Made by a program: the position numbers and the translations under genes
The notes under the pieces: generated by a model
The model's database searches: none
The model's input: only the letters and a program-made list of their open reading frames with translations
Told to the model about the DNA's origin: nothing
Shown: positions 6,854 to 58,601 of the stretch, in pieces
Layout of the letters: each line of letters starts with the position of its first letter
Numbering within the stretch: position 1 is the stretch's first letter
Origin: Bacteroidales bacterium
GTDB lineage: Bacteria; Bacteroidota; Bacteroidia; Bacteroidales; WCHB1-69
Direction: 5' to 3'
Length of the DNA: 64,000 nucleotides
NCBI GenBank assembly: GCA_024400635.1
Contig: JAKSMI010000004.1
Location: 22,340 to 86,339 of the forward strand

Positions 6854-8599
6854 ATGAATACGCAAGATATAATAAAACTCATAGAGCAAGGCGAAGGTGT
6901 TTCCGTGGAATTTAAAACTGCGAAACACAGTCTTCCTAACAATCTTTTTGAGACTGTTTGCGCATTCTTAAACCACAACGGCGGTCATATCTTGTTAGGC
7001 GTTAAGGATGATGGAACTATTGAAGGCATTCCTTCTGATAACGTTGCTGAAATGTGCAAGGAATTGTCAAACCTAAGCAATAATCCTAATAAAATCGACC
7101 CGCCTTTTTTACTTCAACCGCAAGAATTTGATATAAAAGGCAAAAATGTCATTTACATTTTTGTTCCTTCAAGTTCACAAGTGCATAAAACTTGTGGAAA
7201 AGTGTATGACAGAAGTAGCGATGGTGATTTCGTTCTGAAAAGCCATACGAAAATCTCAGAACTATATCTGAAAAAAAACAATTTCTACAGCGAAAACATC
7301 ATATATCCTTATCTTTACGAAGAACATTTCAAGCCAGGCCTACTTAATAAGGTGAGAAACTTGATACATAGTTTTCATCCAGGACATCCATGGCTGGATT
7401 TGTCAGATAGCGAATTTTACAAGGCTGCTGGTTTATACAGATATGATACTACAAACCACGTAGAAGGCTTTACCCTTGCCGCACTGCTGCTGTTTGGGAA
7501 GGATGAAATCATTCATAGTACATTGCCCTATTACCGAATAGAAGCCATTGTGCGGAAAGAAAATTTGGAGCGATACGATGACCGTATTACGGTAATGTGC
7601 AACTTGATTGACGCCCACGAACAATTGATGGAGTTTATCCGAAAACATTTGCCAGATACTTTCTACATGGAAAAGGATCAGCGCATCTCCATTAGGGAAA
7701 AGCTGTTTAGGGAAATCGTCGCAAACTTGTTGATACATAGAGAGTATTTGAATCCTTCCGTCTCAATGATCACCATCGAAAAGGACAAAGTTTTGGCAGT
7801 CAATGCAAATAAACCACTACATTACGAAAATTTTGAAACCTATAAATACCAATCCTTCCCTAAAAATCCGACTATTGCACTGTTTTTTGTTCAAATAGGA
7901 CGTGCTGAATTTTTGGGAACAGGCATTCGCAACATTGTCAAATACTCAAAAGCTTACGCCCATTCCACTCCAATCTTTGAGGACGACAATATGTTTGAAG
8001 TGAAGATACCGCTTGTTGATGGGGAACAAGTAGGGGAACAAGTAAGGGAACAAGTAAGGGAACAAGTAACGATAATAGAAACAGAATGTGTCATACGGTT
8101 GCTGTCTGTGATTTCTAAAGAACATTCAATCAGTGAACTGATGACTTTATTACAATTGTCTGGAAGACGGAATTTTATTGAAAAATACATTTCTCCAGCC
8201 CTCAAAGATGGCTTGATAGAAATGTCTCAGCCCGACAGTCCCAATAGTCCTACGCAAAAATATCGGCTTACTACCAGAGGGGAACAAGTAAAGGAACAAG
8301 TAGGGGAACAAGTAAGGGAACAAGTAGAGGAACAAGTAGGGGAGCAAGTAACGATAATAGAAACAGAATGTGTCATACGATTGTTGTCTGTGATTTCTAA
8401 AGAACATTCAACTAACGAACTGATGACTTTATTACAATTGTCTGGAAGACGGAATTTTATCGAAAAATACATTTCTCCAGCCCTCAAAGATGGGTTGATA
8501 GAAATGTCTCAGCCTGACAGTCCCAATAGTCCTACGCAAAAATATCGGCTTACGGCTAAGGGGAAACAAATTCAGCAAATAATACTCAACAATGAATAA
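6854..8599 (+). CDS. Schlafen/AlbA_2 domain + HATPase_c_4-like + duplicated wHTH protein (often annotated as RecG-like or putative transcriptional regulator)
   Basis: The N-terminus (GEGVSVEFKTAKHSLPNNLFETVCAFLNHNGGHILLGVKDDGTIEGI) is a typical AlbA_2 signature. REIVANLLIHREY marks the ATPase-like domain. The C-terminal wHTH module is present twice. Confidence 0.7.
   Translation: MNTQDIIKLIEQGEGVSVEFKTAKHSLPNNLFETVCAFLNHNGGHILLGVKDDGTIEGIPSDNVAEMCKELSNLSNNPNKIDPPFLLQPQEFDIKGKNVIYIFVPSSSQVHKTCGKVYDRSSDGDFVLKSHTKISELYLKKNNFYSENIIYPYLYEEHFKPGLLNKVRNLIHSFHPGHPWLDLSDSEFYKAAGLYRYDTTNHVEGFTLAALLLFGKDEIIHSTLPYYRIEAIVRKENLERYDDRITVMCNLIDAHEQLMEFIRKHLPDTFYMEKDQRISIREKLFREIVANLLIHREYLNPSVSMITIEKDKVLAVNANKPLHYENFETYKYQSFPKNPTIALFFVQIGRAEFLGTGIRNIVKYSKAYAHSTPIFEDDNMFEVKIPLVDGEQVGEQVREQVREQVTIIETECVIRLLSVISKEHSISELMTLLQLSGRRNFIEKYISPALKDGLIEMSQPDSPNSPTQKYRLTTRGEQVKEQVGEQVREQVEEQVGEQVTIIETECVIRLLSVISKEHSTNELMTLLQLSGRRNFIEKYISPALKDGLIEMSQPDSPNSPTQKYRLTAKGKQIQQIILNNE
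8021..8560 (+). repeat. In-frame tandem duplication (258 + 282 nt), each copy led by a 12-nt microsatellite
   Basis: Copy 1 (8021-8278) has 4 units of ggggaacaagta-like sequence and copy 2 (8279-8560) has 6 units. The remaining 204-nt module, (TIIETECVIRLL...PTQKYRLT), is nearly identical in both copies. A degenerate third unit start (GKQI) follows. Confidence 0.9.
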
Positions 8600-8826: not shown

Positions 8827-9225
8827 ATGATAGAAAAATTCAAGTTACTACTCCAAAAATATCGCAATTTCATTCTGTATTGCTGTATTGGTGTGATTAA
8901 TACGGGAGTGGATTTCGGCGTGTTTGCATTGTTGGATTGGGCAGGGCTCTATTACATCATAGCTCACGTCATCAGCTATCATTGCGGCATTTTTTGCAGT
9001 TTTTTCCTTAACAGGTATTATAATTTTAAGGTTAAGGACAAACCCGTGCATCGTTTTTTGTCTTTTTACGCTTCCAGTTTAGTGGCCATGGCTCTTAGCG
9101 CCGGACTACTATATCTATTTGTCACGGCATTTGGCTTGCCACACCTACTTGGTAAATTATTTGCCACCGCACTTATTGTCATTTGCCAATTCCTCTTTGT
9201 TAAATACTTTACCTTTAAAAAATAA
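8827..9225 (+). CDS. gtrA: GtrA-family small membrane protein (polyprenyl-phosphate-sugar flippase-like)
   Basis: 132 aa with four predicted TM helices. Carries an N-terminal (F)ILYCCIGVINTGVDFGVF motif typical of GtrA. Confidence 0.7.
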   Translation: MIEKFKLLLQKYRNFILYCCIGVINTGVDFGVFALLDWAGLYYIIAHVISYHCGIFCSFFLNRYYNFKVKDKPVHRFLSFYASSLVAMALSAGLLYLFVTAFGLPHLLGKLFATALIVICQFLFVKYFTFKK

Positions 9226-9229
9226 CAAC

Positions 9230-10156
9230 ATGCTCCTATCCGTAATTGTTCCTTGCTATAATGAAGAACTCGTGGTCCGCGAATCATATAGGCGGCTTAC
9301 AGATGTTTTGCGTCAAACCAACATGGACTACGAATTGATATTTATCAATGATGGAAGCAAAGATCAAACGTTTTCTATATTAAAGGAACTATCCCAAAGT
9401 GACACTGCCGTCAAAATCATCAATTTTGCCAGAAATTTCGGACACCAATGTGCCGTCACGGCCGGCATCAATAATTGCAAAGGAGACCTTGCCGTCATCA
9501 TTGATTCCGACTTGCAAGATCCCCCTGAAGTTATTTTGGATATGCTGGAGATTCAAAAGCGAGAAGATGCTAATGTGGTTTATGGCGTACGTAAAAAACG
9601 AGATGGCGAAACTTGGTTCAAGTTGGTAACGGCAAAATACTTCTATCGCACCTTGAACAAATTGTCAGAAGTCCATTTCCCCGTTGACACAGGCGATTTC
9701 CGTATGATTGACCGCAATATCATTGATTTGTTCAATAGTTTACATGAAAAAAACAAATACATTCGGGGGCTTATCAGTTGGATGGGATATAAACAAGTTC
9801 CTTGTTATTATGATAGAAAGGAACGTTTCGCTGGTGAAACACATTATCCACTGAAAAAAATGCTTAAGTTTGCCCTTACAGGTTTGCTTGGCTTTTCAAA
9901 AAAGCCACTTAAACTTGCATCTGCACTGGGCATTTTGTTTGTCACATTGAGTGTTTTATGTGCCATTATCCTGTTAATTATCAAATTGTGTAATCCTGAT
10001 TTTGTCGTCGGCTTAGGAAATATCGCACTACTCATTTCGTTTATTGGAGGATTGCAATTTATCACAATTGGTATCATTGGCGAATATTTGGCCAATATGT
10101 TTGATGAAGCCAAAGACAGACCTGAATATATCATTAAAAACAAAGTTAATTTTTAA
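9230..10156 (+). CDS. GtrB/ArnC-like family 2 glycosyltransferase (polyprenyl-phosphate glycosyltransferase)
   Basis: Starts at ATG 9230 (MLLSVIVPCYNEE) and carries INDGSKD and DSDLQDPPE motifs plus two C-terminal TM helices. The longer ORF from 9119 overlaps gtrA and is rejected. Confidence 0.75.
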   Translation: MLLSVIVPCYNEELVVRESYRRLTDVLRQTNMDYELIFINDGSKDQTFSILKELSQSDTAVKIINFARNFGHQCAVTAGINNCKGDLAVIIDSDLQDPPEVILDMLEIQKREDANVVYGVRKKRDGETWFKLVTAKYFYRTLNKLSEVHFPVDTGDFRMIDRNIIDLFNSLHEKNKYIRGLISWMGYKQVPCYYDRKERFAGETHYPLKKMLKFALTGLLGFSKKPLKLASALGILFVTLSVLCAIILLIIKLCNPDFVVGLGNIALLISFIGGLQFITIGIIGEYLANMFDEAKDRPEYIIKNKVNF

Positions 10157-46923: not shown

Positions 46924-48300
46924 TTAATGATTTATCACCAACTTCGGCTCATTCAACCTTATCCGCATCCACTTCAACAACGCGGCTTTTTGCTCTTCAC
47001 TCATGTCTTGTTTTGATTCTATGAATAGGGTGGGGATGGTGTCAGGTTTCATTGTCGTGGTGTTGGTATATACCAAACGCGAAACGGAAAAAGATGTGAT
47101 TTGCGGATATTGAACAGCTAATTCTTTGGCAATTTGCATGTTGGTTTCTGAATTGGTGCCAACACGGTTCAGCTCATTCTCCAATGATTTGATTTTTTCA
47201 TTGCGTTCTGCCAACAGTGCGTCTTTCTTTTCAAGCATATTCCCTATCAATTCTGATTCATTAATCGGATCAAAAGTATTGTTCGTCTGACGTACTATCA
47301 GATTGGCCTTGGGCAAGCTGTACTGCTTATGCATAATACTCTGCATCAAGGCAACATCTTCTTCCGAAATTTCACGTCCAATGATGGATAGGGTTATTTC
47401 TTGATTCTTCCGGCTGTATTCCTTCTTTACCGCAACTATCTGTGAATCTTCGAAATAGGGCTGATCTTGAATCTCTGTGACGAATTTGTTGGCTGATGAG
47501 TTGAACGAACTTTCCCTGACCACTTGGATGGCGATAATGATGCTCGGAATGATGACGATTATCGAAAACAAACTGATGTATCGTTTAACGGTTTTTGCCC
47601 TTGCCGCATCTTGATATTTTGTCTTTGGGAAATGTAAATATCTGACTATGATATAAGTAGATAGGGCAATGAAGAACGAATTGATGAAGAATAGATAGAA
47701 GGCTCCGAAAAAGTATTTGAACTGCGCGGTGGCAAGTCCGTAACCCGCCGTGCACAATGGCGGCATCAATGCGGTGGCAATGGCGACGCCAGAAATGACG
47801 GTGAAGTTCTGCGAGCGGCGTGAGGTGGCAATGATACCGGCTGCGCCACCAAAGAAGGCGATTAGTACATCAAAAATGGTAGGTCTTGTTCTTGCCAACA
47901 ACTCCGATTGTGCATCGCCCAATGGTGATAACAAAAAATAGGCAAAGGATGCCAATAGGCTGATTAACACCATGATACATAGATTGTTGAGGGATTTCTT
48001 CAGCAGGTCTGTATCCGATATGCCAATGGCAAGGCCGATGCCGTTGATAGGCCCCATCAAAGGGGAAATGAGCATGGCACCAATGATGACAGCCGTGGAG
48101 TTTACATTCAAGCCAATGGAGGCGACGATGATGGCAAAAAACAAAATCCATACATTCACCCCTTTGAAAACTACAGAACTGCTAATGCTGCTGACGGTGG
48201 CTTCATAATCAGTGTCCTCGTGAATGCGTATGGTCTTCTTGAACCATGCCAGCAGATTCCGCCACCAACGTACCCAAGTTGACTGTCCTTTCTTTTCCAT
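46924..48300 (-). CDS. DUF389-family membrane protein with an extended C-terminal domain
   Basis: GAMLISPLMGPI and the hydrophobic core as remembered for DUF389/TIGR00341 proteins. The last roughly 190 aa are soluble. Confidence 0.55.
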   Translation of the reverse strand: MEKKGQSTWVRWWRNLLAWFKKTIRIHEDTDYEATVSSISSSVVFKGVNVWILFFAIIVASIGLNVNSTAVIIGAMLISPLMGPINGIGLAIGISDTDLLKKSLNNLCIMVLISLLASFAYFLLSPLGDAQSELLARTRPTIFDVLIAFFGGAAGIIATSRRSQNFTVISGVAIATALMPPLCTAGYGLATAQFKYFFGAFYLFFINSFFIALSTYIIVRYLHFPKTKYQDAARAKTVKRYISLFSIIVIIPSIIIAIQVVRESSFNSSANKFVTEIQDQPYFEDSQIVAVKKEYSRKNQEITLSIIGREISEEDVALMQSIMHKQYSLPKANLIVRQTNNTFDPINESELIGNMLEKKDALLAERNEKIKSLENELNRVGTNSETNMQIAKELAVQYPQITSFSVSRLVYTNTTTMKPDTIPTLFIESKQDMSEEQKAALLKWMRIRLNEPKLVINH

Positions 48301-48570
48301 ATTTTTATCTTTGTAAATTATTGAAATTCAAAAATATTCCATTTTACAGGATTGCAAAGGCAAAAATACACATTTATTGCTTATGTATGAATAAGATATC
48401 GTATTTTTTTCAAAGGTGTTTAATGTTAATTGTTTATTGTTTATTTTCCTCGTCCTATATAGGCCCGCACTTCACGGTCGTTATACAGGCGGATGAAGGT
48501 TTTCATTTCAATCTACATTTATTTAGCATTTTGGCGTTAGGATTATATTGTCTATCGGACGTTATCTTTT

Positions 48571-49278
48571 TTATATTCCCCATTTGCTTGATATTTCGCG
48601 ACAGTACTCTTCATGTTGTTGTATGATAGTTGTGTTATCACCATTTGCAACAGCTTTTTCCAATTCGCAAATTATTTCCATTTTATCGCCGTAGGCGGCG
48701 GATCTCTCCGTTTGCAAGGAATCTAAAATGGAGACAACTTGATTTGGGTAGATGACAAACGTATTTTCGGGGATATTGCTGACATCCCGCAATATTGAAG
48801 TTCCGTAAAATACGACAACTGAATAAAATGGGACATCTTTGTTTTTGGTGAAACGTTGCTTCAATGCTTGTATATGCCCATCGTTCTGTTTTACGGGATT
48901 GTAAAACCGGTGTTTTTCCCGCCCGTATGCCAGAACTTGAGTCCATTGCTCCTGATTCCCTTTCCCAAATATCCATCCGCTGTAATCTTTCACTTCAAAA
49001 ACGATGATGCCTGCTTTTGTGGCGACAACAACATCTATTTGAGAATATTTTCCTTCAGTTCTTTTTACATACAGGTCGTGATAAATTGCCTTTGGATGAA
49101 TCCCATGTTTCAACAATTGTAAAACCAAATCCCGCTCCGACCATGTTCCTCTATCCAAGCGGGTGACAGTTGCGAGTAATTTTCTGTCTTCCCTTTTTTG
49201 CTTTATCGTAAGATATATCTTGAAAGATACAGCGATAAGGAGTGCGACAACCGCTACTGTCATTATAATGTCTGTCAT
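48571..49278 (-). CDS. NERD (nuclease-related) domain protein with an N-terminal TM helix
   Basis: A TM helix, then GTWSERDL...YHDLYV...YSQIDVVVATKAGIIVFEVKDYSGWIFG, which is the typical NERD core (D...EVK). Confidence 0.7.
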   Translation of the reverse strand: MTDIIMTVAVVALLIAVSFKIYLTIKQKREDRKLLATVTRLDRGTWSERDLVLQLLKHGIHPKAIYHDLYVKRTEGKYSQIDVVVATKAGIIVFEVKDYSGWIFGKGNQEQWTQVLAYGREKHRFYNPVKQNDGHIQALKQRFTKNKDVPFYSVVVFYGTSILRDVSNIPENTFVIYPNQVVSILDSLQTERSAAYGDKMEIICELEKAVANGDNTTIIQQHEEYCREISSKWGI

Positions 49279-49332
49279 GCTGCAATTTGTGTTTTATAAT
49301 GTACAATGGTTTGTTTTCCTGATTTTTTTTTC

Positions 49333-49367
49333 AATTCTTTCCAATATTTTAAAGATTGGAAAGAATT
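49333..49367. repeat. 35-bp palindromic element, copy 1 (aattctttccaat-N9-attggaaagaatt)
   Basis: 13-bp perfect arms. A near-identical copy lies at 50538-50572. Confidence 0.85.
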
Positions 49368-49436
49368 TTATTTAAAGACCTGCTCCACGTTCCTGCGGTT
49401 GCCGTCGATGGTGATTTGGATTTTATCCTGATTGAA
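49368..49436 (-). pseudogene. Fragment of an ndpA-like 3' region (left half of the split site)
   Basis: Reads FNQDKIQITIDGNRRNVEQ/VFK*. It matches RLDQKIQIIIDGNRENVEQ of the full gene up to the 9-bp core at 49379-49387, then diverges. Confidence 0.65.
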
Positions 49437-50288
49437 TCAAATGGCATCATCGTCTTTCGATTTCTTTTCGCCTTTCAGGGCTTTCTTTTCGTCGCTTTTC
49501 AAACGGCGTTCAACCTTTTTCACATCCTCAGCCGGTGGAAGATTTTCTGGCACGATTCCTCTTTCAATCAGCATTTTCCTAACGGCAAGATTGTTGTCAA
49601 CATGTTCCTTTTCAATGCTTTGCTCGCCCGACAAATCCTTAGCCTGAACATTGACGCTTGTCATTTCGGCTGCAAAATCCTTTGCCTTAATGCTGATTGT
49701 CGGTAGAAAATCGGCTATGGGACGACTATTTGGCACACCCATTTTTCTTTTCAGTTGCTGCGTGGTCAGATGGAACAAGGCTTGGTCGCCTTTCGAGCGG
49801 ATAATGGCAAATCCTTGGTCGTTCACACCTCTTTCATAAAGCACACCCGAAAGCTTCTTTTCCGTTTCCTGCAATTTTGCACGCGCTTTCACACGCTCCG
49901 CTTCCAACAGTCTCTGTTCCACAAGTTCAGCGCGGCGCGTCTGCACGGCAAAATAAGTCTGTGCAAATGCGATTTGCGGTTTCCGAGGGTCTCCGTTTTG
50001 TGCAATAAGATAGCAAGCGTAACGAGTCAGAAGGATGTCATCTATCTCATGCTGAGCACCTTTACCTGCTTCTATCACCTTGCTGACGTCAGCAAAGTGA
50101 TCCGATACTTTATTGCCAGCATTCCGGCATGATTCTTTTGCTTTGTCAACCGCATTCATAAAATTACGCCATTGCGAGTATCCCAAAATCGGATACAATT
50201 CTCTTGCGCTCCAACATTCCACGCCTTCCACCTCGGCCGCAGCCTGCTCAAACTGCTCAAACAACTGTTTTACTTCTTCTGTTTTCAT
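49437..50288 (-). CDS. dinD: DNA damage-inducible protein D
   Basis: [18 protein letters not shown]...[33 protein letters not shown] closely parallels E. coli DinD. ATG at 50288 (MKTEE) is conserved in the duplicated fragment; the track start at 50309 is GTG. Confidence 0.8.
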
Positions 50289-50367
50289 ATTTATTTTGAT
50301 TTGGTTCACATTTCTTGCCGGTAATACACCTTATAGAACTTGCCCCTTTCGTCCTCGCCCTGCTCCA
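50225..50367. repeat. 143-bp direct repeat, copy A (ndpA 3' end, spacer and the first 21 codons of dinD)
   Basis: Aligns with 52575-52717 at about 90 percent identity (about 14 mismatches by eye, mostly in the 17-nt spacer). Confidence 0.85.
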
Positions 50368-50524
50368 TCACATTGAATGGGCGAGGATAGCCATTGAAAT
50401 ACAGCCAATTCTGTTTAAGGAGGGGAACATCGCTGCTCAATTTTCCCCTAACGTCCGTTGTTATCGCCATCTTGGTAATATTGTATGATTGGTTCTGCAA
50501 AAATATCCAATGTTTTATCTTCAT
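50306..50524 (-). pseudogene. Chimeric ORF whose last 20 codons are an ndpA 3' end (right half of the split site)
   Basis: The C-terminus ([19 protein letters not shown]) equals the end of the full gene. The upstream 52 aa are unrelated. Confidence 0.6.
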
Positions 50525-50537
50525 TTTATTTCACTCC

Positions 50538-50572
50538 AATTCTTTCCAATGTTTTAAAGATTGGAAAGAATT
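50538..50572. repeat. 35-bp palindromic element, copy 2
   Basis: Has the same 13-bp arms as 49333-49367. The loop differs at one position. Confidence 0.85.
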
Positions 50573-50630
50573 TATGTGCTTTTCAATTTACAATTTATAA
50601 TGAACACTGTGCAATGGTTTGAGCTTACGA

Positions 50631-51356
50631 TTACCAATTTATATTGTTTTCCAACGCCTCAACGTATTTTTTGTACAGGCAGATGAAAATTTCGTCAATT
50701 AATATCAAAATGGCAAAACGAAAGAAATAATTATGATAGATGTAATCGGAACTTGCTAATGTATCAAGTGTTGGTAAGTTTTGTTGATATGATGTTAGGT
50801 TATGGGCACAACGGTTGCGGTGCTTATAAACAATTTCATCGTATGATTTATGTAGGTCGGATTGAAATAGTATGTAAGTATCTTTTTGTTTTTGTTTGAT
50901 CTGATTATCCTTTAATATTGTGTTGTTTGACTTAAAATATGAGAAACTTTCTTGTTGAGCGGCTCGTAACAGATTGGGATTGTCTAAAATATTAAGAACT
51001 ATATTTTTAACGTCCTTAACATTTGCTGTAATAACATCTATATCGAACTGGGGGATTCGTTTGATTAAATCTTTATATATGTTGTTCTTACTACAATAAT
51101 CAGAATGCTCTCCGTAATTCTTATTATTCAGATATTCATACCGATACTCATAATCATTCGTGGCCATTTCCCAGCATATACACTTCATTTTTTGCTCTTG
51201 CGCACCTGTCATTTTTAAGAAAACCGATTGCATAATGTAATCGCACAATGGATATGTTTCAATACCGCTTCCAATACCTCGGATGGCATTAACACTATCT
51301 TCCAAAATCTTTGAGAGAGGCGTTGTTATGAATTTATAATGCTGGCTCTTGTACAT
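50631..51356 (-). CDS. HEPN-like protein (R-x4-H motif)
   Basis: KHRNRCAHN (RNRCAH = R-x4-H) lies in an alpha-helical protein of 241 aa. ATG at 51356 overlaps the DUF262 stop by 23 nt; the track start at 51395 is TTG. Confidence 0.55.
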   Translation of the reverse strand: MYKSQHYKFITTPLSKILEDSVNAIRGIGSGIETYPLCDYIMQSVFLKMTGAQEQKMKCICWEMATNDYEYRYEYLNNKNYGEHSDYCSKNNIYKDLIKRIPQFDIDVITANVKDVKNIVLNILDNPNLLRAAQQESFSYFKSNNTILKDNQIKQKQKDTYILFQSDLHKSYDEIVYKHRNRCAHNLTSYQQNLPTLDTLASSDYIYHNYFFRFAILILIDEIFICLYKKYVEALENNINW

Positions 51357-52542
51357 AGTCTTTGTAGATATTGATTGATGCTTTGATTCTCTCAACAGTA
51401 TATTTTAGAGCGTTTGGTGCTCGCTTATGGGCCTCTGATTTAAAATTGGCATCATTGATTTTATTCTTAATAGCAGAATCGAGATCATCCTTGTTTGTAA
51501 TATCAATAGTTTTCCCCTTAATAATAACATAGTAAATCAACCCGAGTAAATACATGTCGGCATCAATGATTGTGTTAAAGTCCTTTGGTATTGATAAATT
51601 GTTTAACGCTGACCTTAGTGCGTCAAGTCTGCTCGTAATATCATTATCTGGATTAGGAAAAACAAATGTTATTGCTGGGAATTTTTGGTGGTCTTTTTTC
51701 TCTTCCACAATAGTTGTAATAAATTCAGAAAAATATTCTTCTCGTTTTCTGCCATAGCCATAAGCCACTTTTGTAGTATTGGGATCATTTAATTTACAAA
51801 AATCAAAAAGATATGCCAAATAACGCACAAAGTCAGGATTTTTAGGTTCTGAATTTTGCATAATTGTAATACTCTTAAGAACACCTGAATCCAATAATTT
51901 CGTGTACTTTCCATTTAGGAAATATAATGCTCGGCGGCTCTCCTCTGGTAGCAATACTTTTCCTAATGTATTGATGTGCTTAAAAATACGTGAATAATAT
52001 TTTTGTTGTTCGTTTTGGTCTGAAGTGTTAGATACGATATAAGAGAATCCTAAAAAAGTATCTTCCAAAACCTCATCAGAAATTGTCTCCGCTAGATCAT
52101 CATATCGGTCGTCAGTTGCTATCTTTTGTCTTATGTTTTCTATATTCTTGCCCATCCCTAACAATTCATCAAATCTCCATTCCAAAATAGTTTTGTCTTC
52201 ACCTTCCGAGTCCATTCCATCATCACCCTCAGCAAGAGAATTTTCTTTTAATTTGAATTTTCCTGCATTAGGATACTTTTTTATACAAGCAAGGAGAATA
52301 CTTGTTAGGCGTTGTTGCCCATCAATGATGTAATTGTGCGTTTTGCCATCGCTTGCGGTAAAAGCACCTATTGTAATAGGCGGGACAAAGTCTTTATCTC
52401 TCAAAGACTGAATTAGTTTTTTTATACTTTCCTGATTCCAACAAAACTTCCTTTGATAACGCGGTAATTCAATATTGCCACTCAACATTAAACCAATCCA
52501 ATGTTTTAGTGAGTATTCTCCATAATAAACTCTATTTTTCAT
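51334..52542 (-). CDS. DUF262 (ParB/Srx-like) protein without a DUF1524/HNH domain
   Basis: ELPRYQRKFCW and IIDGQQRLTS hallmark motifs. The C-terminal roughly 200 aa were not recognised and no H-N-H motif was seen. ATG at 52542; the track start at 52548 is TTG. Confidence 0.7.
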   Translation of the reverse strand: MKNRVYYGEYSLKHWIGLMLSGNIELPRYQRKFCWNQESIKKLIQSLRDKDFVPPITIGAFTASDGKTHNYIIDGQQRLTSILLACIKKYPNAGKFKLKENSLAEGDDGMDSEGEDKTILEWRFDELLGMGKNIENIRQKIATDDRYDDLAETISDEVLEDTFLGFSYIVSNTSDQNEQQKYYSRIFKHINTLGKVLLPEESRRALYFLNGKYTKLLDSGVLKSITIMQNSEPKNPDFVRYLAYLFDFCKLNDPNTTKVAYGYGRKREEYFSEFITTIVEEKKDHQKFPAITFVFPNPDNDITSRLDALRSALNNLSIPKDFNTIIDADMYLLGLIYYVIIKGKTIDITNKDDLDSAIKNKINDANFKSEAHKRAPNALKYTVERIKASINIYKDYVQEPAL

Positions 52543-52554
52543 ATTCAATCCTCC

Positions 52555-52638
52555 TTAATTATTCATTGTTAATTCTTCCACCTCGGCGGCGGCTTGTTCA
52601 AACTGCTCAAACAACTGTTTTATTTCTTCTGTTTTCAT
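52555..52638 (-). pseudogene. 5' fragment of a second dinD copy
   Basis: [21 protein letters not shown] matches the first 21 codons of dinD. Then comes the unrelated ELTMNN*. Confidence 0.75.
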
Positions 52639-52717
52639 ATTTATGCTGTCTTAATTTACATTTCCTGCTGGTAATACACCTTATAGAACTTGCCCCTTTC
52701 GTCCTCGCCCTGCTCCA
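52575..52717. repeat. 143-bp direct repeat, copy B
   Basis: See copy A at 50225-50367. Confidence 0.85.
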
Positions 52718-53696
52718 CGTTCTCGCGGTTGCCGTCGATGATGATTTGGATTTTCTGGTCCAATCGAATGACACGCTTGTAGCTGCGTTGTTGCTTCTTG
52801 CGTGCCGATTCAGAAATGGTAAATTGGTCATCAATGGCGATTTGGCTTTCTTCTTCGTATGCGCGCTTGTACAGATGGAATTTTTCAATCACCTCTGGCT
52901 GTTCGATGACTTCGTTGGCAAACTCCTCAATGTCGAAAGTGTCCTTTTCCTTGAAAAACTTTAATGACTTGTTAAGCAGGTCGATTTGGTCGGCTTTAGT
53001 TACCTCAAATTCGTTAGGCAGTTCCTTTGTGACAAAATCCTTTGCAAAAGTCATGAAATTCTGCGTGTTGGCGTATTCGTCTTTACGCTGGCGCACGTGC
53101 AGGAAATCGTCCACCCAATATTGCGCTTCAATGCCTTTGTTGGTATTATCAACTACCGCCACGACATAACCGTTTTCCTTTTCCTTATTGAAAATCAGGC
53201 AGCCTTTATCCAATTTCTTGATATTGATGCCTTTTTCGCTTTCCAAATTGAAACTGTTGTTTTCGTGCAGCACCTTGAGGAAAGTGTCTTTGTTTTCCGA
53301 CTTGAACAAGCCGACCGCATCCATTGTTTCGCCATCCAAAATGCAATCCTTGAAATAGACGGTATAAAACTCACCGCCTTTGATTTTCGGATGTGTGCTT
53401 TGTTCGTAAAGATGCTTTGCCAGATTCACCGACTGATCATATAGCGCATCGGGATTGTCGAAAATACGGGAAACGTAGGTGTAAACAGCGTTAAGTTCAA
53501 GCTCGCTTTCGTGAAAAAATTCGAAATATTCGTTGGTGGTGAAAGGTGAGATATAATATAATAATAAAAGGTCTTTTAATCTATCATCTATATTTACAAA
53601 TGTATTAGATAATATTATTCCATCATCCGCAACTTTATTTCCGACAAAATGTAATGTAACATTTTGAATTTTTGATTCCAAGAATATTGCACTCAT
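52656..53696 (-). CDS. Nucleoid-associated protein, NdpA/YejK (NA37) family-like
   Basis: 346 aa. The N-terminus (IQNVTLHFVGNK) and overall pattern fit my memory of Bacteroidota NA37-family proteins. Its start overlaps the upstream stop codon as ATGA. Confidence 0.6.
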   Translation of the reverse strand: MSAIFLESKIQNVTLHFVGNKVADDGIILSNTFVNIDDRLKDLLLLYYISPFTTNEYFEFFHESELELNAVYTYVSRIFDNPDALYDQSVNLAKHLYEQSTHPKIKGGEFYTVYFKDCILDGETMDAVGLFKSENKDTFLKVLHENNSFNLESEKGINIKKLDKGCLIFNKEKENGYVVAVVDNTNKGIEAQYWVDDFLHVRQRKDEYANTQNFMTFAKDFVTKELPNEFEVTKADQIDLLNKSLKFFKEKDTFDIEEFANEVIEQPEVIEKFHLYKRAYEEESQIAIDDQFTISESARKKQQRSYKRVIRLDQKIQIIIDGNRENVEQGEDERGKFYKVYYQQEM

Positions 53697-54832
53697 CGTT
53701 TTTGCTGTTTTAAGTATTCCAAAAAGTTGTTATATACAACATTTTTTTGTCTATCCATCTCTGAAAGCAATTTTGATTTCAGTTTGTTTTTATCAGTTGT
53801 GCTTAGTCTTTTTTCTGAACTTAATTGTGAAATATTCATTTCAAATTCAGCATTACCAAATTTGTTAGGATAATCCGGAAAGCCTAAACTGATAGTAAAT
53901 TTACCTTTTTCTCCCCTGTAATTATATGAAAATACGGCATCCATATTCCATAGAATAATGGAATTATGATATTTGGTATCTTTCATAAAAAACTTATCAT
54001 TCAATGATTCTCCAGACAACAGAATCTTTTTCATTTTATCCATCCAAATAATTTCTTCAGGAAGGGCTGAATTATCATCCGGTTTGATTGAAATATCCTT
54101 TATGTTTTCGCAAGTAAAGTTGTCATTTTCTAAATGAGTTGTCAACCGGTAAAAAAACGCGAATCTCTCATTATTTGAAAATTCAGAAAAAATAATTTTC
54201 TTTAGTTTTGCATCTTGCGCAACAATTCCTTTCTCTTTAAATTTTTGAATTTGTTGTTTAATAATTTGTTCTGCAATCTCTTTCGTTTCTGGCGCAGTAT
54301 GAGTTATTTTAATATGTCCCTTACCATTCTCATTAATAATTTCGACTTTCCCTGGAAATTCATTTTTCTGCTCATACCATGATTTATTTCTATCATAGCG
54401 AATAATTGTAAAGTCAGCAATTAAGTGTTCTGGATTGTTGTCAACTTTCGTAAAACGAGTTGGATACTTTAATTCACAAGAAGGCAAGTTTTTCTTTAAG
54501 AAATCATTAATATCAACATTATTACAATCAGGGTGAAACAATGTTGCATTTGGATTAAATTCTATTTCTCTTGAAAACTTTTTTTCATTATCTTCTCTCT
54601 CAGATAACGACAATCTCACTTCTTCAAATTCTTTGGGCGACAATAAAAGTGTTTGCAGAATAGGTACGGTGTATGATTTGTCGTTATTAAGTGCAAATAC
54701 TCCACGTTCTTTTAATATCCGGTGTATTTCCGCATTAGAAATAGAACTCTGGTTAACAAAACCTCGGAGCATTTCTCCAAAAGGCAACATCTTATCAATA
54801 TCGTTTTGACTTACATTCATATTAATACACAT
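53693..54832 (-). CDS. Hypothetical protein, 379 aa, no recognisable domain
   Basis: A long ORF, AT-rich and Lys/Asn-rich. ATG at 54832 overlaps the upstream gene by 11 nt; the alternative ATG at 54820 lies 1 nt after its stop. Confidence 0.6.
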   Translation of the reverse strand: MCINMNVSQNDIDKMLPFGEMLRGFVNQSSISNAEIHRILKERGVFALNNDKSYTVPILQTLLLSPKEFEEVRLSLSEREDNEKKFSREIEFNPNATLFHPDCNNVDINDFLKKNLPSCELKYPTRFTKVDNNPEHLIADFTIIRYDRNKSWYEQKNEFPGKVEIINENGKGHIKITHTAPETKEIAEQIIKQQIQKFKEKGIVAQDAKLKKIIFSEFSNNERFAFFYRLTTHLENDNFTCENIKDISIKPDDNSALPEEIIWMDKMKKILLSGESLNDKFFMKDTKYHNSIILWNMDAVFSYNYRGEKGKFTISLGFPDYPNKFGNAEFEMNISQLSSEKRLSTTDKNKLKSKLLSEMDRQKNVVYNNFLEYLKQQKR

Positions 54833-55754
54833 TTAAAAGATTTCTGTAATTCTCCACGGTAACAGTTTTTGTAAATTCATTATCCTGAAAACCTTGTTTC
54901 GATTCTGCTACAATGTTTTTATGCAACAAATTATTATAATCTGGGAAAGCTATAATCACATCTCCTACCCAATTTGATGATATATCTTTTGCTAGTCCCA
55001 TTAAACGTTTCAGGTCTGCGGCTTCAAAATTATCTATACTTGCCAATAACAAAGCTATTTCTTTTTCGTTGCTCTTTTTCATCAACTTTATTGGAATGAT
55101 ACTTGAATTCAGATATTCAACAGGAAGGATTGAGCCTGTATTATTCCTGTTTTGTGGATTTAAATTTTGACCTGTTGCTGGATAATAAAAGAAATAGTTA
55201 TATTCTGTTTTTGATTTGATATAACTCATCACTTCTAAGATAAAACCAACTCGTTTGTTATCCATGATATAAATAGTATTATTCTTGAAAGAATCAATTC
55301 GTACAGTTGACACTGCATTAATTAAATCATCATAACCATCTTCGCTATTATTCAACCAAAATAGTACTCCAACATCATTAATTGTTGTTGGATGAAAGTT
55401 GGGTATTATTGAATCTTTTTGCGGAGAACAATCAAAACATTCAATAGTGTTAATTAAGTCCAGCATATACTTTTTAAAAGTACTTTGTGGACTATTGGGA
55501 TATTTATCATTACTATATTTTGATGATATTACGATATTGTTTAATTGTCCATCAACAAGAGGATTCATGTAGGAATATAAGAAATCTATCCCATGTGTTC
55601 TTGCTGGTTCTCCTTTAGAATTTAAATGTTCCCCATTCTGTTGAGAGCAATCAATTTGAATTCCTTTTGCCAAATCTGACCATCCTATTACGGATAAGAA
55701 TCTTTCGACGACAGATTCTCCGTATTCTCCTATTTTTTTAGACCATTCACCCAT
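54822..55754 (-). CDS. Hypothetical protein, 310 aa, possible PD-(D/E)xK-like N-terminal core
   Basis: GEYGESVVERFLSVIGW...HGIDFLYS...NIVISSKY resembles a nuclease-fold G-x-x-GE ... D ... (E/S)xK arrangement. This is weak evidence, read by eye only. Confidence 0.55.
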   Translation of the reverse strand: MGEWSKKIGEYGESVVERFLSVIGWSDLAKGIQIDCSQQNGEHLNSKGEPARTHGIDFLYSYMNPLVDGQLNNIVISSKYSNDKYPNSPQSTFKKYMLDLINTIECFDCSPQKDSIIPNFHPTTINDVGVLFWLNNSEDGYDDLINAVSTVRIDSFKNNTIYIMDNKRVGFILEVMSYIKSKTEYNYFFYYPATGQNLNPQNRNNTGSILPVEYLNSSIIPIKLMKKSNEKEIALLLASIDNFEAADLKRLMGLAKDISSNWVGDVIIAFPDYNNLLHKNIVAESKQGFQDNEFTKTVTVENYRNLLNVY

Positions 55755-55795
55755 AGTTATTTGATTTATTTATTTGTTGTTATTTCCGTATATTT

Positions 55796-58237
55796 TTATT
55801 TCCCAATTCTTTCCACATACCTTTTCAGCATCTCCATTTCCTTGCGTTTCATATAGTTTTCCATGAAAACATAGTCCGGCTCGCCTTTGGAATTTACTGG
55901 AAGCATGATAGTAAACGAATTTAAGCGATTTGAATTTATTGAATGTCCGTGCCCGAAAAACTCTTCTTGCATGGAAATGCAACGAGACAAAAACACCTGT
56001 ATGTGCTTTGACAGTTCTTGTTTAGGATACAAAGCCGTAACATGACTATCTAACGCAAAATCAAATGGCTGGTAGTAGGCTAAACCTGCACCACCGTCAC
56101 CATCATTGTTGAGAGTGACACAATGTCCCTGATACAAATTTTGTGTCTCAACAAAAGACCTCAAACCATTATTCACTTTTCTTGCAGAAACCAAAGGCAC
56201 ATCTCCATCTTGCAAAGAATTCATATCTGTTTGATTTCCTTTATTCGGAGTGAACAATTTTATTAATCTAAAAGGTTTCCATTCTTTATTATCAATTCGT
56301 TCTATTTTCGGCAATTCACCAATTCGTTCCCTTCTTTCTGAATTATCAAACAAATACCCGCGTCCGTGGGCAATCATGTTAAACTCAAAAGTGAGGTAGT
56401 CGGCCATTGTCTTTTCAAAGTCGGCTTCGGTCGGGATGTCCTCGTTGAAATAATAGAACGAATGCAGCCATTCATCTTCGGCTTCAACGGTGGAAGTCAC
56501 CATGAAGTCGTTGGTGGTATGCCTGCCCATCAGCCAACATTCCAACAAAAGTTTCTTGCGCTCCTTGGCTTGCTCGGTCGGCAGCAGCCCCAAATGCGGA
56601 AACACCACAAAGCCGTCATCCTTAAAGTTAATGAACTTACTGTATTTGTTTTTCGGGTGCGGACGATGAGCGGTGAAAACGGCAATCACGGGATTGGTGC
56701 CAACGCCGTAGAAAGTCTGAGGATTCAAGGTTATCACGCCTTCCAAAGTATGGTTTTCCAGAATATAGCGTTTGTCGATTTTGTCTTCCTTGGTTTTACC
56801 TACCATAGTGCTTTGTGGCACAATCACCACGCAACGTGCGCCATCGGCCAACGAATCAAGCAAATGGCAGATGAATTTCAATTCCGTAAGTTCGGCTGTC
56901 GTTTTGTTTTTGCCTTGCGAATAAGGCGGATTCATGAAACCGACGGTGAAGTTTTTCTTTCGCAGTTCCTCGGCTGGCTGTTTCAGAAAATCGGCACAAA
57001 TCAGATTGCTTTTTCCATCGCCGCGCAAAATCATGTTGGTTGTGGCAATCGAAAACATATCGTCACGCAACTCAATGCCATGCAAACGCTCTTTCTTTAT
57101 GGTGTGCTGTTCGTCGCGGCTCGCATTTTTCAACATTCGGTGCATGGCCGAAATCAGGAAGCCGCCCGTGCCGCAACAAGGGTCAAAGACTTTGTCGGTC
57201 GGTTTCAAATCGGCTAAATCGACAAAAAGCTCCGTAATGTGTTTCGGTGTCAGCACAACGCCCAATGTCTGTCCGTCGCCACCACTGTAACGGATAAACT
57301 CGCCATAGAAACGCCCCAAGACATCTTCAGGCGAATTGTTGCAAATGGCGGTGAGGATATTAGAATAAAGATATTCAGCAAAATAACGCAATGGTGACTT
57401 GCCCAATTTGGAACTGAACTCCGATAAATGCGGACGGTTTTTTATCAGTCGGAACTGGTCGAGAACCTTTTCCTTTTTCACTTGCGGCTGAACGTGAACG
57501 CTGTCCATGTGTTTTGAAAGGGCATCAAAAATTTTGTCGCCGTCAGTCTCTCCGTTTTCCCGCGAAGCGGTCAGTTGCTCAGTGTCGAAATTCTGTTCCT
57601 GCAAGGCAAGCAAGATGGCAGACACCACCAAAGGTTTTTCCGAATCGCCCAACTGTCCGTAATTGCGCAAATCCTCATGCAGTTGTCCGGCACGTTTCAG
57701 AATCACTTCCAATTCCGCCTGTTCCACAGTCTTGCTGCCCAAGACCTCAGTGCGATAATAATTGGTGATTTTTTCAGCCGTAAAATTCTCAAAACTCTTT
57801 ACTTTTTTGAGAATCTGATAGCCGTTCTCACTCACGAAAATAGGACGAATGATGATTCTTTCATCCTGCGTGCCCGAACAGCCAAAGGCAAAGACCTTTT
57901 TGAAATGCGTCTTTTCAATGATGTTCAGGGCATAATGCAAGGCACCGTTTTCTGCATAGTTAGTCACGCTTGATGTGTCCATTAGAAGCGTGTCCTCTCT
58001 TTCGTTCATGTATTTTGCCTGCTTCGTCTGGTCGGCCTTATCCTCGATGACGATGATAAACTCGCCAGATTGAGCGACAAATTCAGGGAATCCGGTTTTG
58101 CCCGTTCCTCGTTTCGAAGACGTTTTGAGGGCTTCATTGATTTCCTCAATCTGGCTGCCATTCATCGTAAAATCGAGGCCAGCCTTTGTGAGCAATTGCG
58201 CCACAATGAAATCGGTTTTCTTCTCGTAGTCAGTCAT
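55796..58237 (-). CDS. Single-chain restriction-modification enzyme, Type IIG/IIB-like (nuclease-like N-domain + N6-adenine methyltransferase + HsdS-like TRD)
   Basis: The N-terminus (GFPEFVAQSGEFIIVIEDKAD) has a PE...ExK pattern. FDPCCGTGGF is SAM motif I and FMNPPY is motif IV. The C-terminal roughly 190 aa look like a TRD. ATG at 58237; the track start at 58240 is GTG. Confidence 0.7.
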   Translation of the reverse strand: MTDYEKKTDFIVAQLLTKAGLDFTMNGSQIEEINEALKTSSKRGTGKTGFPEFVAQSGEFIIVIEDKADQTKQAKYMNEREDTLLMDTSSVTNYAENGALHYALNIIEKTHFKKVFAFGCSGTQDERIIIRPIFVSENGYQILKKVKSFENFTAEKITNYYRTEVLGSKTVEQAELEVILKRAGQLHEDLRNYGQLGDSEKPLVVSAILLALQEQNFDTEQLTASRENGETDGDKIFDALSKHMDSVHVQPQVKKEKVLDQFRLIKNRPHLSEFSSKLGKSPLRYFAEYLYSNILTAICNNSPEDVLGRFYGEFIRYSGGDGQTLGVVLTPKHITELFVDLADLKPTDKVFDPCCGTGGFLISAMHRMLKNASRDEQHTIKKERLHGIELRDDMFSIATTNMILRGDGKSNLICADFLKQPAEELRKKNFTVGFMNPPYSQGKNKTTAELTELKFICHLLDSLADGARCVVIVPQSTMVGKTKEDKIDKRYILENHTLEGVITLNPQTFYGVGTNPVIAVFTAHRPHPKNKYSKFINFKDDGFVVFPHLGLLPTEQAKERKKLLLECWLMGRHTTNDFMVTSTVEAEDEWLHSFYYFNEDIPTEADFEKTMADYLTFEFNMIAHGRGYLFDNSERRERIGELPKIERIDNKEWKPFRLIKLFTPNKGNQTDMNSLQDGDVPLVSARKVNNGLRSFVETQNLYQGHCVTLNNDGDGGAGLAYYQPFDFALDSHVTALYPKQELSKHIQVFLSRCISMQEEFFGHGHSINSNRLNSFTIMLPVNSKGEPDYVFMENYMKRKEMEMLKRYVERIGK

Positions 58238-58601
58238 CACTTTACCTTATTATCTATGTTTCAATCTTACAAAACGTCAGCGGCATAAAACCCGCTTAAA
58301 TATTTTGATTATTTTCGTTTAAAAAGTTGCGTATATCATTGATTACAAGTGCTTTTTTTAGTGCATAAAACCAAACGACCAACAGTCTCTAACACGCGCA
58401 ACTTGGCTGCAAAGTTCGCAAAATTTCCTGACATCTGTAAGAGATTCTCTAAAAAATTATCAACAGGCATGGGATATAAGTTGCCGGTCGGTTTTAAAAC
58501 TTGTGAAAGTTAAAATTTTTCTTTACATTTTACGTGATATATTATTTTTATTTCTATTTTTTCAGTCAAATTAACAATTACATATTCAGTTAATGAAAAC
58601 C

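Follow-up and report, generated by a model that had tools for sequence, protein, structure and literature searches.

Hotspots for defence islands lie between conserved core genes and are filled by homologous recombination and by homology-facilitated illegitimate recombination, as known from Escherichia coli, from Pseudomonas hotspots and from natural transformation. Here we analyzed a 64,000-nt stretch of DNA (the window) from a Bacteroidales bacterium (assembly GCA_024400635.1, contig JAKSMI010000004.1, positions 22,340–86,339 of the forward strand), in which the gene dinD lies among pieces of the 3′ end of ndpA, the gene for an NA37 (YejK-like) protein, and homology to that gene end breaks in three places at the same 9-bp core. 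The original prediction had read this arrangement as the integration of a cassette, from which a circle carrying dinD could still be excised. On balance, our comparisons favor a reading in which the three core sites are inherited recombination scars in a mosaic anti-phage island anchored on NA37/ndpA, and dinD is not an active cassette.

The source is a 2.43-Mb metagenome-assembled genome (G000, with the window on contig C34), and loci drawn for comparison from genome and metagenome collections carry labels beginning with G or L. The genes of interest all lie on the minus strand, and the region is presented in that direction. We designated the core sites S1 (L1-core-R1, the intact ndpA end), S2 (X-core-R2, the end of a small open reading frame, sORF) and S3 (L2-core-Y, after dinD).

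Three homologous core sites around dinD

The window contained three copies of the core, CCTGCTCCA, in all, at 49379, 50359 and 52709 and always on the plus strand, against an expectation of 0.29 from shuffling, and none of 100 shuffled sequences reached three copies. The pattern is real and not a product of chance; the three copies are homologous to one another and do not represent independent occurrences. S1 is the 3′ end of the intact NA37 gene (52656–53696, minus strand; Pfam PF04245, E = 1.9e-33), which has one copy in the source genome, with L1 at 52718–52758, the core at 52709–52717 and R1 at 52656–52708. S2 is an sORF of 72 amino acids (aa; 50306–50524, minus strand) made up of X (50368–50524), the core (50359–50367) and R2 (50306–50358). 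S3 is an ndpA fragment (49379–49445, minus strand) that is in frame with dinD (49437–50288, minus strand) and consists of L2 and the core (49379–49387), joined at the core to Y (TCTTTAAATAA). Y and the downstream copy of a 35-bp palindrome together occupy 49332–49378 (palindrome 49332–49368; fold z = −2.8), and the upstream copy lies at 50537–50573 (13-bp stem, 9-nt loop; fold z = −3.6).

A three-piece alignment showed that homology to the ndpA 3′ end switches at the core, with X-core-R and L-core-Y as formally reciprocal junctions that overlap by 9 bp; the short identical core stands in direct orientation at both junctions (49379 and 50359) and a third time in the intact gene (52709). The direct repeats 50225–50367/52575–52717 (143 nt) and 49379–49424/52709–52754 (46 nt) were 90% and 93% identical, respectively. 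To this extent the original prediction was borne out: the window scan and the alignment confirmed three core copies at which ndpA homology breaks, both repeats and the two palindromes were present as claimed, and the permuted topology with its reciprocal junctions had been described correctly. The claimed start of the downstream ndpA fragment, 49379, also held, but not the claimed end at 49436, as homology runs about 6–9 nt further, past the dinD stop. There (49437–49445), an ndpA CGA (Arg) codon is the in-frame counterpart of TGA, the stop codon of dinD, so the last two dinD codons and the stop are derived from ndpA. The 2.43-Mb genome, in which the prediction had proposed to look for other cores beside ndpA-like genes, contained no further copy of the core, the core-R string or the palindrome.

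Core junctions in other genomes

Outside the window, the X-core-R unit recurred whole in L084 and L085/L086, at 88–91% nucleotide identity. L084 carries a Type IIG restriction–modification (RM) gene, four TIR genes, the palindrome, X-core-R and trkA, at 88% nucleotide identity to the window, and has no dinD. L085/L086 match the window from 50570 to 49436, that is from inside the palindrome to the dinD stop, at 91% and then diverge, with 270 nt of other DNA beyond dinD followed by a 30-nt L fragment that ends 16 nt short of the core. In L085 the ~270-nt insert right after the dinD stop (9036–9305) is GC-rich, contains several hairpin-forming repeats and resembles a small repeat element of the miniature inverted-repeat transposable element or repetitive extragenic palindrome type.

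The L-core-Y junction was recovered when the family was searched with the ndpA-end/dinD-start junction. In G076:C23, an 85-aa ndpA remnant leads into L-core*-Y-palindrome, followed by Fic and trkA, where core* denotes a slightly mutated core and Y is homologous to Y of the window. The full order at this locus is non-permuted, namely ndpA′(85 aa)-L-core*-Y-palindrome-Fic-hsdR′-leader-half palindrome-R end-trkA. From Fic to trkA, both G076 and L090 have a 46-codon 5′ fragment of hsdR and a leader, followed by half a palindrome, the final 13 nt of R and 115 nt as found after R in L084 (L090 7483–7623 and L060, which is G076:C23). The right end of G076 and L090 is a deletion derivative of palindrome-X-core-R-trkA as in L084. 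The hsdR′-leader-half palindrome run is joined to the end of R directly upstream of trkA, which marks trkA as the second border of the hotspot in relatives; trkA is absent from the window. S2 and S3 are thus inherited modules that were not made in this genome, and each junction occurs elsewhere without the other (L084, L085/L086 and G076).

An empty site reading X-core-Y was found neither in protein searches nor in DNA scans of genome and metagenome contigs. DNA pattern scans recovered core-Y-palindrome in G076 only among genome contigs and in no metagenome contig, the end of X was likewise found in no metagenome contig, and a protein search with the sORF returned X + R forms only. In G075:C101, the palindrome module follows an unsplit ndpA 3′ fragment, with L-core-R ~40 nt upstream of it. 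These 40 nt after R were considered as a remnant of X, which would have made the locus an adjacent empty site, and rejected, the alignment being no better than 15% of shuffles.

Comparison with the closest relatives

L088, whose ndpA protein is 99% identical to that of the window, and L090 were the closest relatives. L088 matches window positions 58268–50617 (7.7 kb) at 92% DNA identity and then enters Fic directly. Both loci carry RM, GapS4, ndpA and the GmrSD_N pair as in the window, after which the leader runs straight into Fic, and L090 continues to trkA. Relative to these loci, the extra DNA in the window is a 2.07-kb block (minus strand) from 50581 to 48507, exactly before the Fic ATG, which holds palindrome, sORF, dinD, L2-core-Y, palindrome, leader and NERD. 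The block ends in leader/palindrome linkers with short ATTGAA repeats, not at cores. NERD is followed in the window by only a degenerate Fic 5′ remnant of ~70 nt (MKTFIRLYNDREVRA…; 48436–48506, minus strand), recognized by alignment to L088 and by a weak tblastn match with the L090 Fic (15 aa, 80% identity, E = 0.022), while L088 and L090 have an intact Fic at this place. Most of the block, from palindrome to dinD stop, recurs at 91% in other metagenome contigs, and the block itself is older.

The GmrSD_N pair stands at the same junction in the window, L088 and L090. In the window, a dinD 5′ remnant of 72 nt (52572–52643, minus strand; part of the repeat copy 52575–52717) lies between ndpA and the GmrSD_N gene. 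The order ndpA followed by dinD is an older arrangement, and the GmrSD_N pair was inserted in the 5′ end of an older dinD copy, an insertion shared with close relatives. Both the ndpA-dinD adjacency and the GmrSD_N insertion are old, because L088 and L090 also carry a dinD-like remnant between ndpA and GmrSD_N.

Probable gene conversion in the 143-bp repeat

The dinD remnant on the S1 side shared 89% identity with the 5′ end of the real dinD at S2 and only 57% with the remnant in L088/L090, and the ndpA 3′ end adjoining it was 97% identical to L088. R1 and R2 were identical for 47 nt from the core, whereas R of L084 differed from R2 at 12 of 62 nt, mostly synonymously, with X 88% identical. 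Because of these identities and the divergence of R in L084, the 143-bp repeat appears to have been homogenized by gene conversion between the ndpA ends in this genome. A conversion tract can start only where homology starts, and the apparent break at the core would therefore have been sharpened.

Breakpoint scatter and hotspot anchors

Remnants of the ndpA 3′ end preceded by unrelated cargo were common in the family. Their breaks lie 250 nt before the core (−250) in G076, where a 444-aa gene precedes, at −83 in G018 (dam fragment), at −57 in the window (dinD) and at −36 in G075:C101 (OLD-type ATPase); a break at 0, the core itself, has X before it, and L085 has a right-side break at −16. Downstream of an ABC/AAA-type ATPase gene in the G018 locus (G018:C31, L066, ~7250–7690), a Dam-type methyltransferase gene breaks off after ~95 codons and continues, out of frame, into 145 nt of the ndpA 3′ end. 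In G077, a membrane-protein gene replaces the whole of ndpA, which is otherwise bordered by a 247-aa gene and a methyltransferase gene, and only R is left, with homology starting at CAGGGCGAGG, within ~4 nt of the core.

On these alignments, breakpoints of ndpA fragments scatter overall. The original prediction expected breakpoints in related genomes to coincide with the core and had itself named scatter as evidence to the contrary; what we found was mostly scatter (−250, −83, −57, −36, −16). As for recurrence at the core, the X-core-R and L-core-Y copies elsewhere are homologous by descent, one independent event lies ~4 nt off (G077), and five breakpoints lie elsewhere. Cargo varied on both sides of ndpA in relatives (L088–L090, L097–L099). 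The locus thus combines the features of a hotspot mosaic, namely conserved anchors, variable cargo, nested anchor fragments with differing breakpoints (−250, −83, −57, −36 and 0) and gene conversion.

A proposed history of the locus

The history we favor would have foreign DNA joined repeatedly, through homologous recombination in ndpA or the linkers on one side and an illegitimate join on the other, each such event leaving behind a shortened copy of the 3′ end of ndpA. X|core-R and L-core|Y would be the right and left ends of one old palindrome-bounded insertion into the ndpA 3′ end at TGGAGCAGG, with 9 bp duplicated. A later tandem duplication or unequal crossover, with dinD|L2 as novel joint, would have given the permuted order around dinD, and the 143-bp repeat would then have been sharpened as its two copies in this genome underwent gene conversion. 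A single old insertion at the core, driven by microhomology or duplicating its target, is plausible; one insertion is suggested because G076 has L-core-Y on the left, and remains of X-core-R on the right, of one Fic-bearing segment. Present-day mobility of dinD is unsupported.

Several points weigh against this history. The junctions overlap by exactly 9 bp, as expected from a mechanism that is site-specific or duplicates its target, and two independent breakpoints would fall within 9 nt over ~250 nt with a likelihood of ~3–7% by a rough estimate. A hotspot is hinted at by the independent event in G077, which ends within ~4 nt of the core. The step from a non-permuted to a permuted order is one that we infer, and given the unsplit arrangement in G075:C101, L-core|Y could be a ~95-bp deletion unrelated to X|core-R. 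The collections searched contained few related loci, no more than a handful.

Alternative explanations

Pure decay of a tandem ndpA-dinD-ndpA-dinD array by independent deletions or replacements, with the shared 9 bp a coincidence, would account for the permuted order and its novel in-frame dinD|L2 joint, which are a signature of tandem duplication, and would sit well with the many other ndpA remnants and their scattered breakpoints; G075:C101 shows that L-core|Y could come from a ~95-bp deletion at an ndpA end before the palindrome module. We nevertheless consider this unlikely. A profile test related X to neither ndpA nor dinD, Y belongs to the palindrome module, and the estimated ~3–7% applies to two replacements ending on one stretch of 9 bp by chance. 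In addition, G076 and L084 taken together show one junction type at either end of a single Fic-bearing segment by trkA, which is better explained by a single event.

The model closest to the original prediction is a ~980-bp circle (R-dinD-L, with a reconstituted ndpA 3′ end) that integrated in a palindrome-flanked small ORF (X-core-Y), by recombination catalyzed in trans, either site-specific or at a 9-bp microhomology, and that is still excisable. Its empty site would read …CCATTCAATGTGA-TGGAGCAGG-TCTTTAAATAAAATTC… and its circle junction …GGCAACCGCAGGAAC-GTGGAGCAGG-GCGAGGACGAAAGG…, with L2 and R2 variants. The exactly reciprocal junctions with a 9-bp direct repeat agree with such a circle, as do the G077 breakpoint ~4 nt from the core in an unrelated context and the five tyrosine recombinases above the Pfam cut-off on other contigs. 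Recombinase searches otherwise bore out the prediction's statement that the window has none and extended it to the whole of contig C34: tyrosine recombinases (PF00589) had six matches in the genome, five over the Pfam cut-off and all on other contigs, and serine recombinases (PF00239) had none in the whole genome, so the genome search that the prediction had called for yielded enzymes of the first kind but none of the second, and neither on C34.

Against the circle stand its missing empty site in both protein search and DNA pattern scans, the occurrence of X-core-R without dinD (L084), of sORF-dinD without a second core (L085/L086) and of L-core-Y without dinD (G076), the difference of the nearest relatives by a 2.07-kb block not bounded by cores, and the lack of a recombinase on the contig and of any other core copy in the genome. 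Excision of dinD from the small ORF was thus not supported by comparative genomics, which showed separate modules, no empty site and block ends off the core, and we judge the model improbable. Of the wider interpretation as cassette integration, one old recombination at a 9-bp microhomology is still a good explanation, but the excisable 980-bp dinD circle is not.

More doubtful still is that the palindromes, not the core, are the recombination sites, with palindrome-bounded defence cassettes moved in an integron-like manner by a hairpin-recognizing recombinase. Palindrome pairs do flank Fic 1354–1387 bp apart in five genomes, 11 of 152 family genomes carry the palindrome where genes adjoin, the match of L085 to the window starts within it, and the deletion in L090 and G076 ends in it; but no integrase lies nearby, the perfect AT-rich stem after stop codons fits a terminator or RNA hairpin equally well, each genome has only one or two copies, and the cassettes carry their own leaders. 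A trans-acting system without a linked integrase, in which the 9-bp NA37 core and the 35-bp palindromic linkers would act like att sites, so that dinD, Fic and NERD move singly into and out of Bacteroidales defence islands in the manner of an integron, is the least probable of these alternatives and very unlikely.

dinD, the small ORF and the palindromes

The dinD product (Bro-N and DinD C-domain; PADLOC candidate PDC-S13) matched NCBIfam NF008573 over its full length (2e-109, 365 bits, cut-off 242) and PADLOC PDLC04919 at 2e-120. The gene most likely starts at the ATG at 50288, rather than the GTG at 50309, and its product is ~10 aa longer than homologues, which end earlier. Its ratio of nonsynonymous to synonymous substitution rates (dN/dS) was 0.08. 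Phage and plasmid collections matched the dinD gene body only, at ~70%, with no attached ndpA fragments, and exact look-up of the ndpA and dinD proteins of the window found identical copies in the source assembly only.

X had a near-neutral dN/dS of 0.56–0.77, and the sORF, which is frameshifted in L085, probably does not function as a gene. None of 400 sampled genomes of the order contained X, a search of the family and relatives matched the window alone, and an X-only search of 1.84 billion proteins gave one real homologue, of 66 aa and itself X + R. X was also considered as a degenerate ndpA C-terminus, as tblastn alignments had suggested, and this was rejected because X did not stand out from 5000 shuffles when scored against a profile of ndpA L regions. 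An Rfam scan of 48300–53000 matched no family.

The 35-bp palindrome has a 9-nt loop on a perfect, AT-rich stem of 13 bp, comes right after stop codons, and occurs with one or two copies per genome in the 11 family genomes mentioned above, which include that of the window. Pairs of the form AATTCTTTCCAAT-N9-ATTGGAAAGAATT surround a Fic gene of ~434 aa in G008:C1:6052-7440, G052:C41, G053:C35, G066:C10 and G074:C102 (L069–L072, L075). An ORF with an hsdM-like end lies just upstream of the pair in G052, G053 and G074, and the Fic stop codon falls inside the loop of the second palindrome copy in G008 and G066. Next to the upstream palindrome in the window is a conserved leader or promoter-like linker (…CCATTGCACAGTGTTCATTATAAATTGTAAATTGAA; 50582–50630, minus strand), delimited by alignment with L088 7960–8090, and leaders resembling it precede Fic, NERD and other cargo genes. 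The palindrome is a recurrent linker, for which a role as terminator or RNA hairpin would fit as well as one as a recombination site. A literature keyword search returned no paper apparently relevant to such linkers.

Neighboring genes

Upstream of S1 lie, in this order, the Type IIG RM gene (55796–58240), GapS4a (54822–55754) and GapS4b (53693–54832), whose stop is overlapped by the start of NA37; GAPS4 has been described in the literature as a two-gene system. Between S1 and S2 lie the GmrSD_N gene, which is NsnA-like (51334–52548; Pfam PF03235, PADLOC NsnA), and its 254-aa partner (50631–51395), the pair together spanning 50631–52548. The last gene in the 2.07-kb block encodes a NERD-domain protein (48571–49278; Pfam PF08378, 1.2e-27). 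All of these genes are on the minus strand.

In the window (52656–58240) and in L088, L089, L090, L097, L098 and L099, NA37 comes last in every case, behind a variable module of two genes whose stops and starts overlap, the module being GapS4a/b, 301 + 176 aa, 347 + 500 aa or DUF6731 + 158 aa. A Type IIG RM gene precedes the module in the window and in five of the six relative loci, and L097 has an unassigned 600-aa gene instead. NA37 may contribute a third component common to several defence systems, or may only anchor the hotspot.

Comparison with known systems

The locus offers a worked example of how a defence island could be assembled without a mobility gene, through an anchor, linkers, nested gene-end scars and gene conversion. 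For annotators of Bacteroidales defence hotspots it is a useful reminder that direct repeats around a defence gene should not be taken to show a cassette that moves. Were the 9-bp site or the palindromes real recombination sites, they would constitute a new route of defence-gene exchange in gut Bacteroidales, which the present data do not support.

Like the defence-island hotspots described above, the locus has variable cargo (RM, GAPS4, GmrSD_N, Fic, DinD, NERD and TIR) beside anchors (NA37, trkA and type I RM genes), lacks a mobility gene and bears nested truncated anchor 3′ ends as scars. It differs from them in that two scars share an exact 9-bp overlap and in that the 35-bp palindrome with its leader recurs as a linker between cargo genes. 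Integrative elements that target gene 3′ ends (attL/attR; accretion of integrative and conjugative, integrative and mobilizable, and cis-mobilizable elements) likewise create direct repeats of the target 3′ end, with the gene intact at one end and a partial copy at the other, and the arrangement around dinD resembles their tandem accretion; here, however, there is no integrase, the block boundaries differ from the repeats, and the extent of the repeat varies by genome.

A transposon with a 9-bp target-site duplication would share the 9-bp direct repeat at both junctions of the segment, non-permuted in the comparison of G076 and L084. The core-adjacent ends (TCTTTAAATAA… and …CCATTCAATGTGA) are not inverted repeats by inspection, the ORFs of the block matched no transposase family, and the ends are asymmetric (Y-palindrome versus X), all unlike such an element. 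As in integron cassettes with their attC sites, short palindromes bound single-gene units that vary between genomes. Unlike in integrons, no IntI or other integrase is encoded on the contig, the stem is perfect and lacks the features of attC, every gene comes with a leader of its own, and copy number is very low, with two palindrome copies in the genome.

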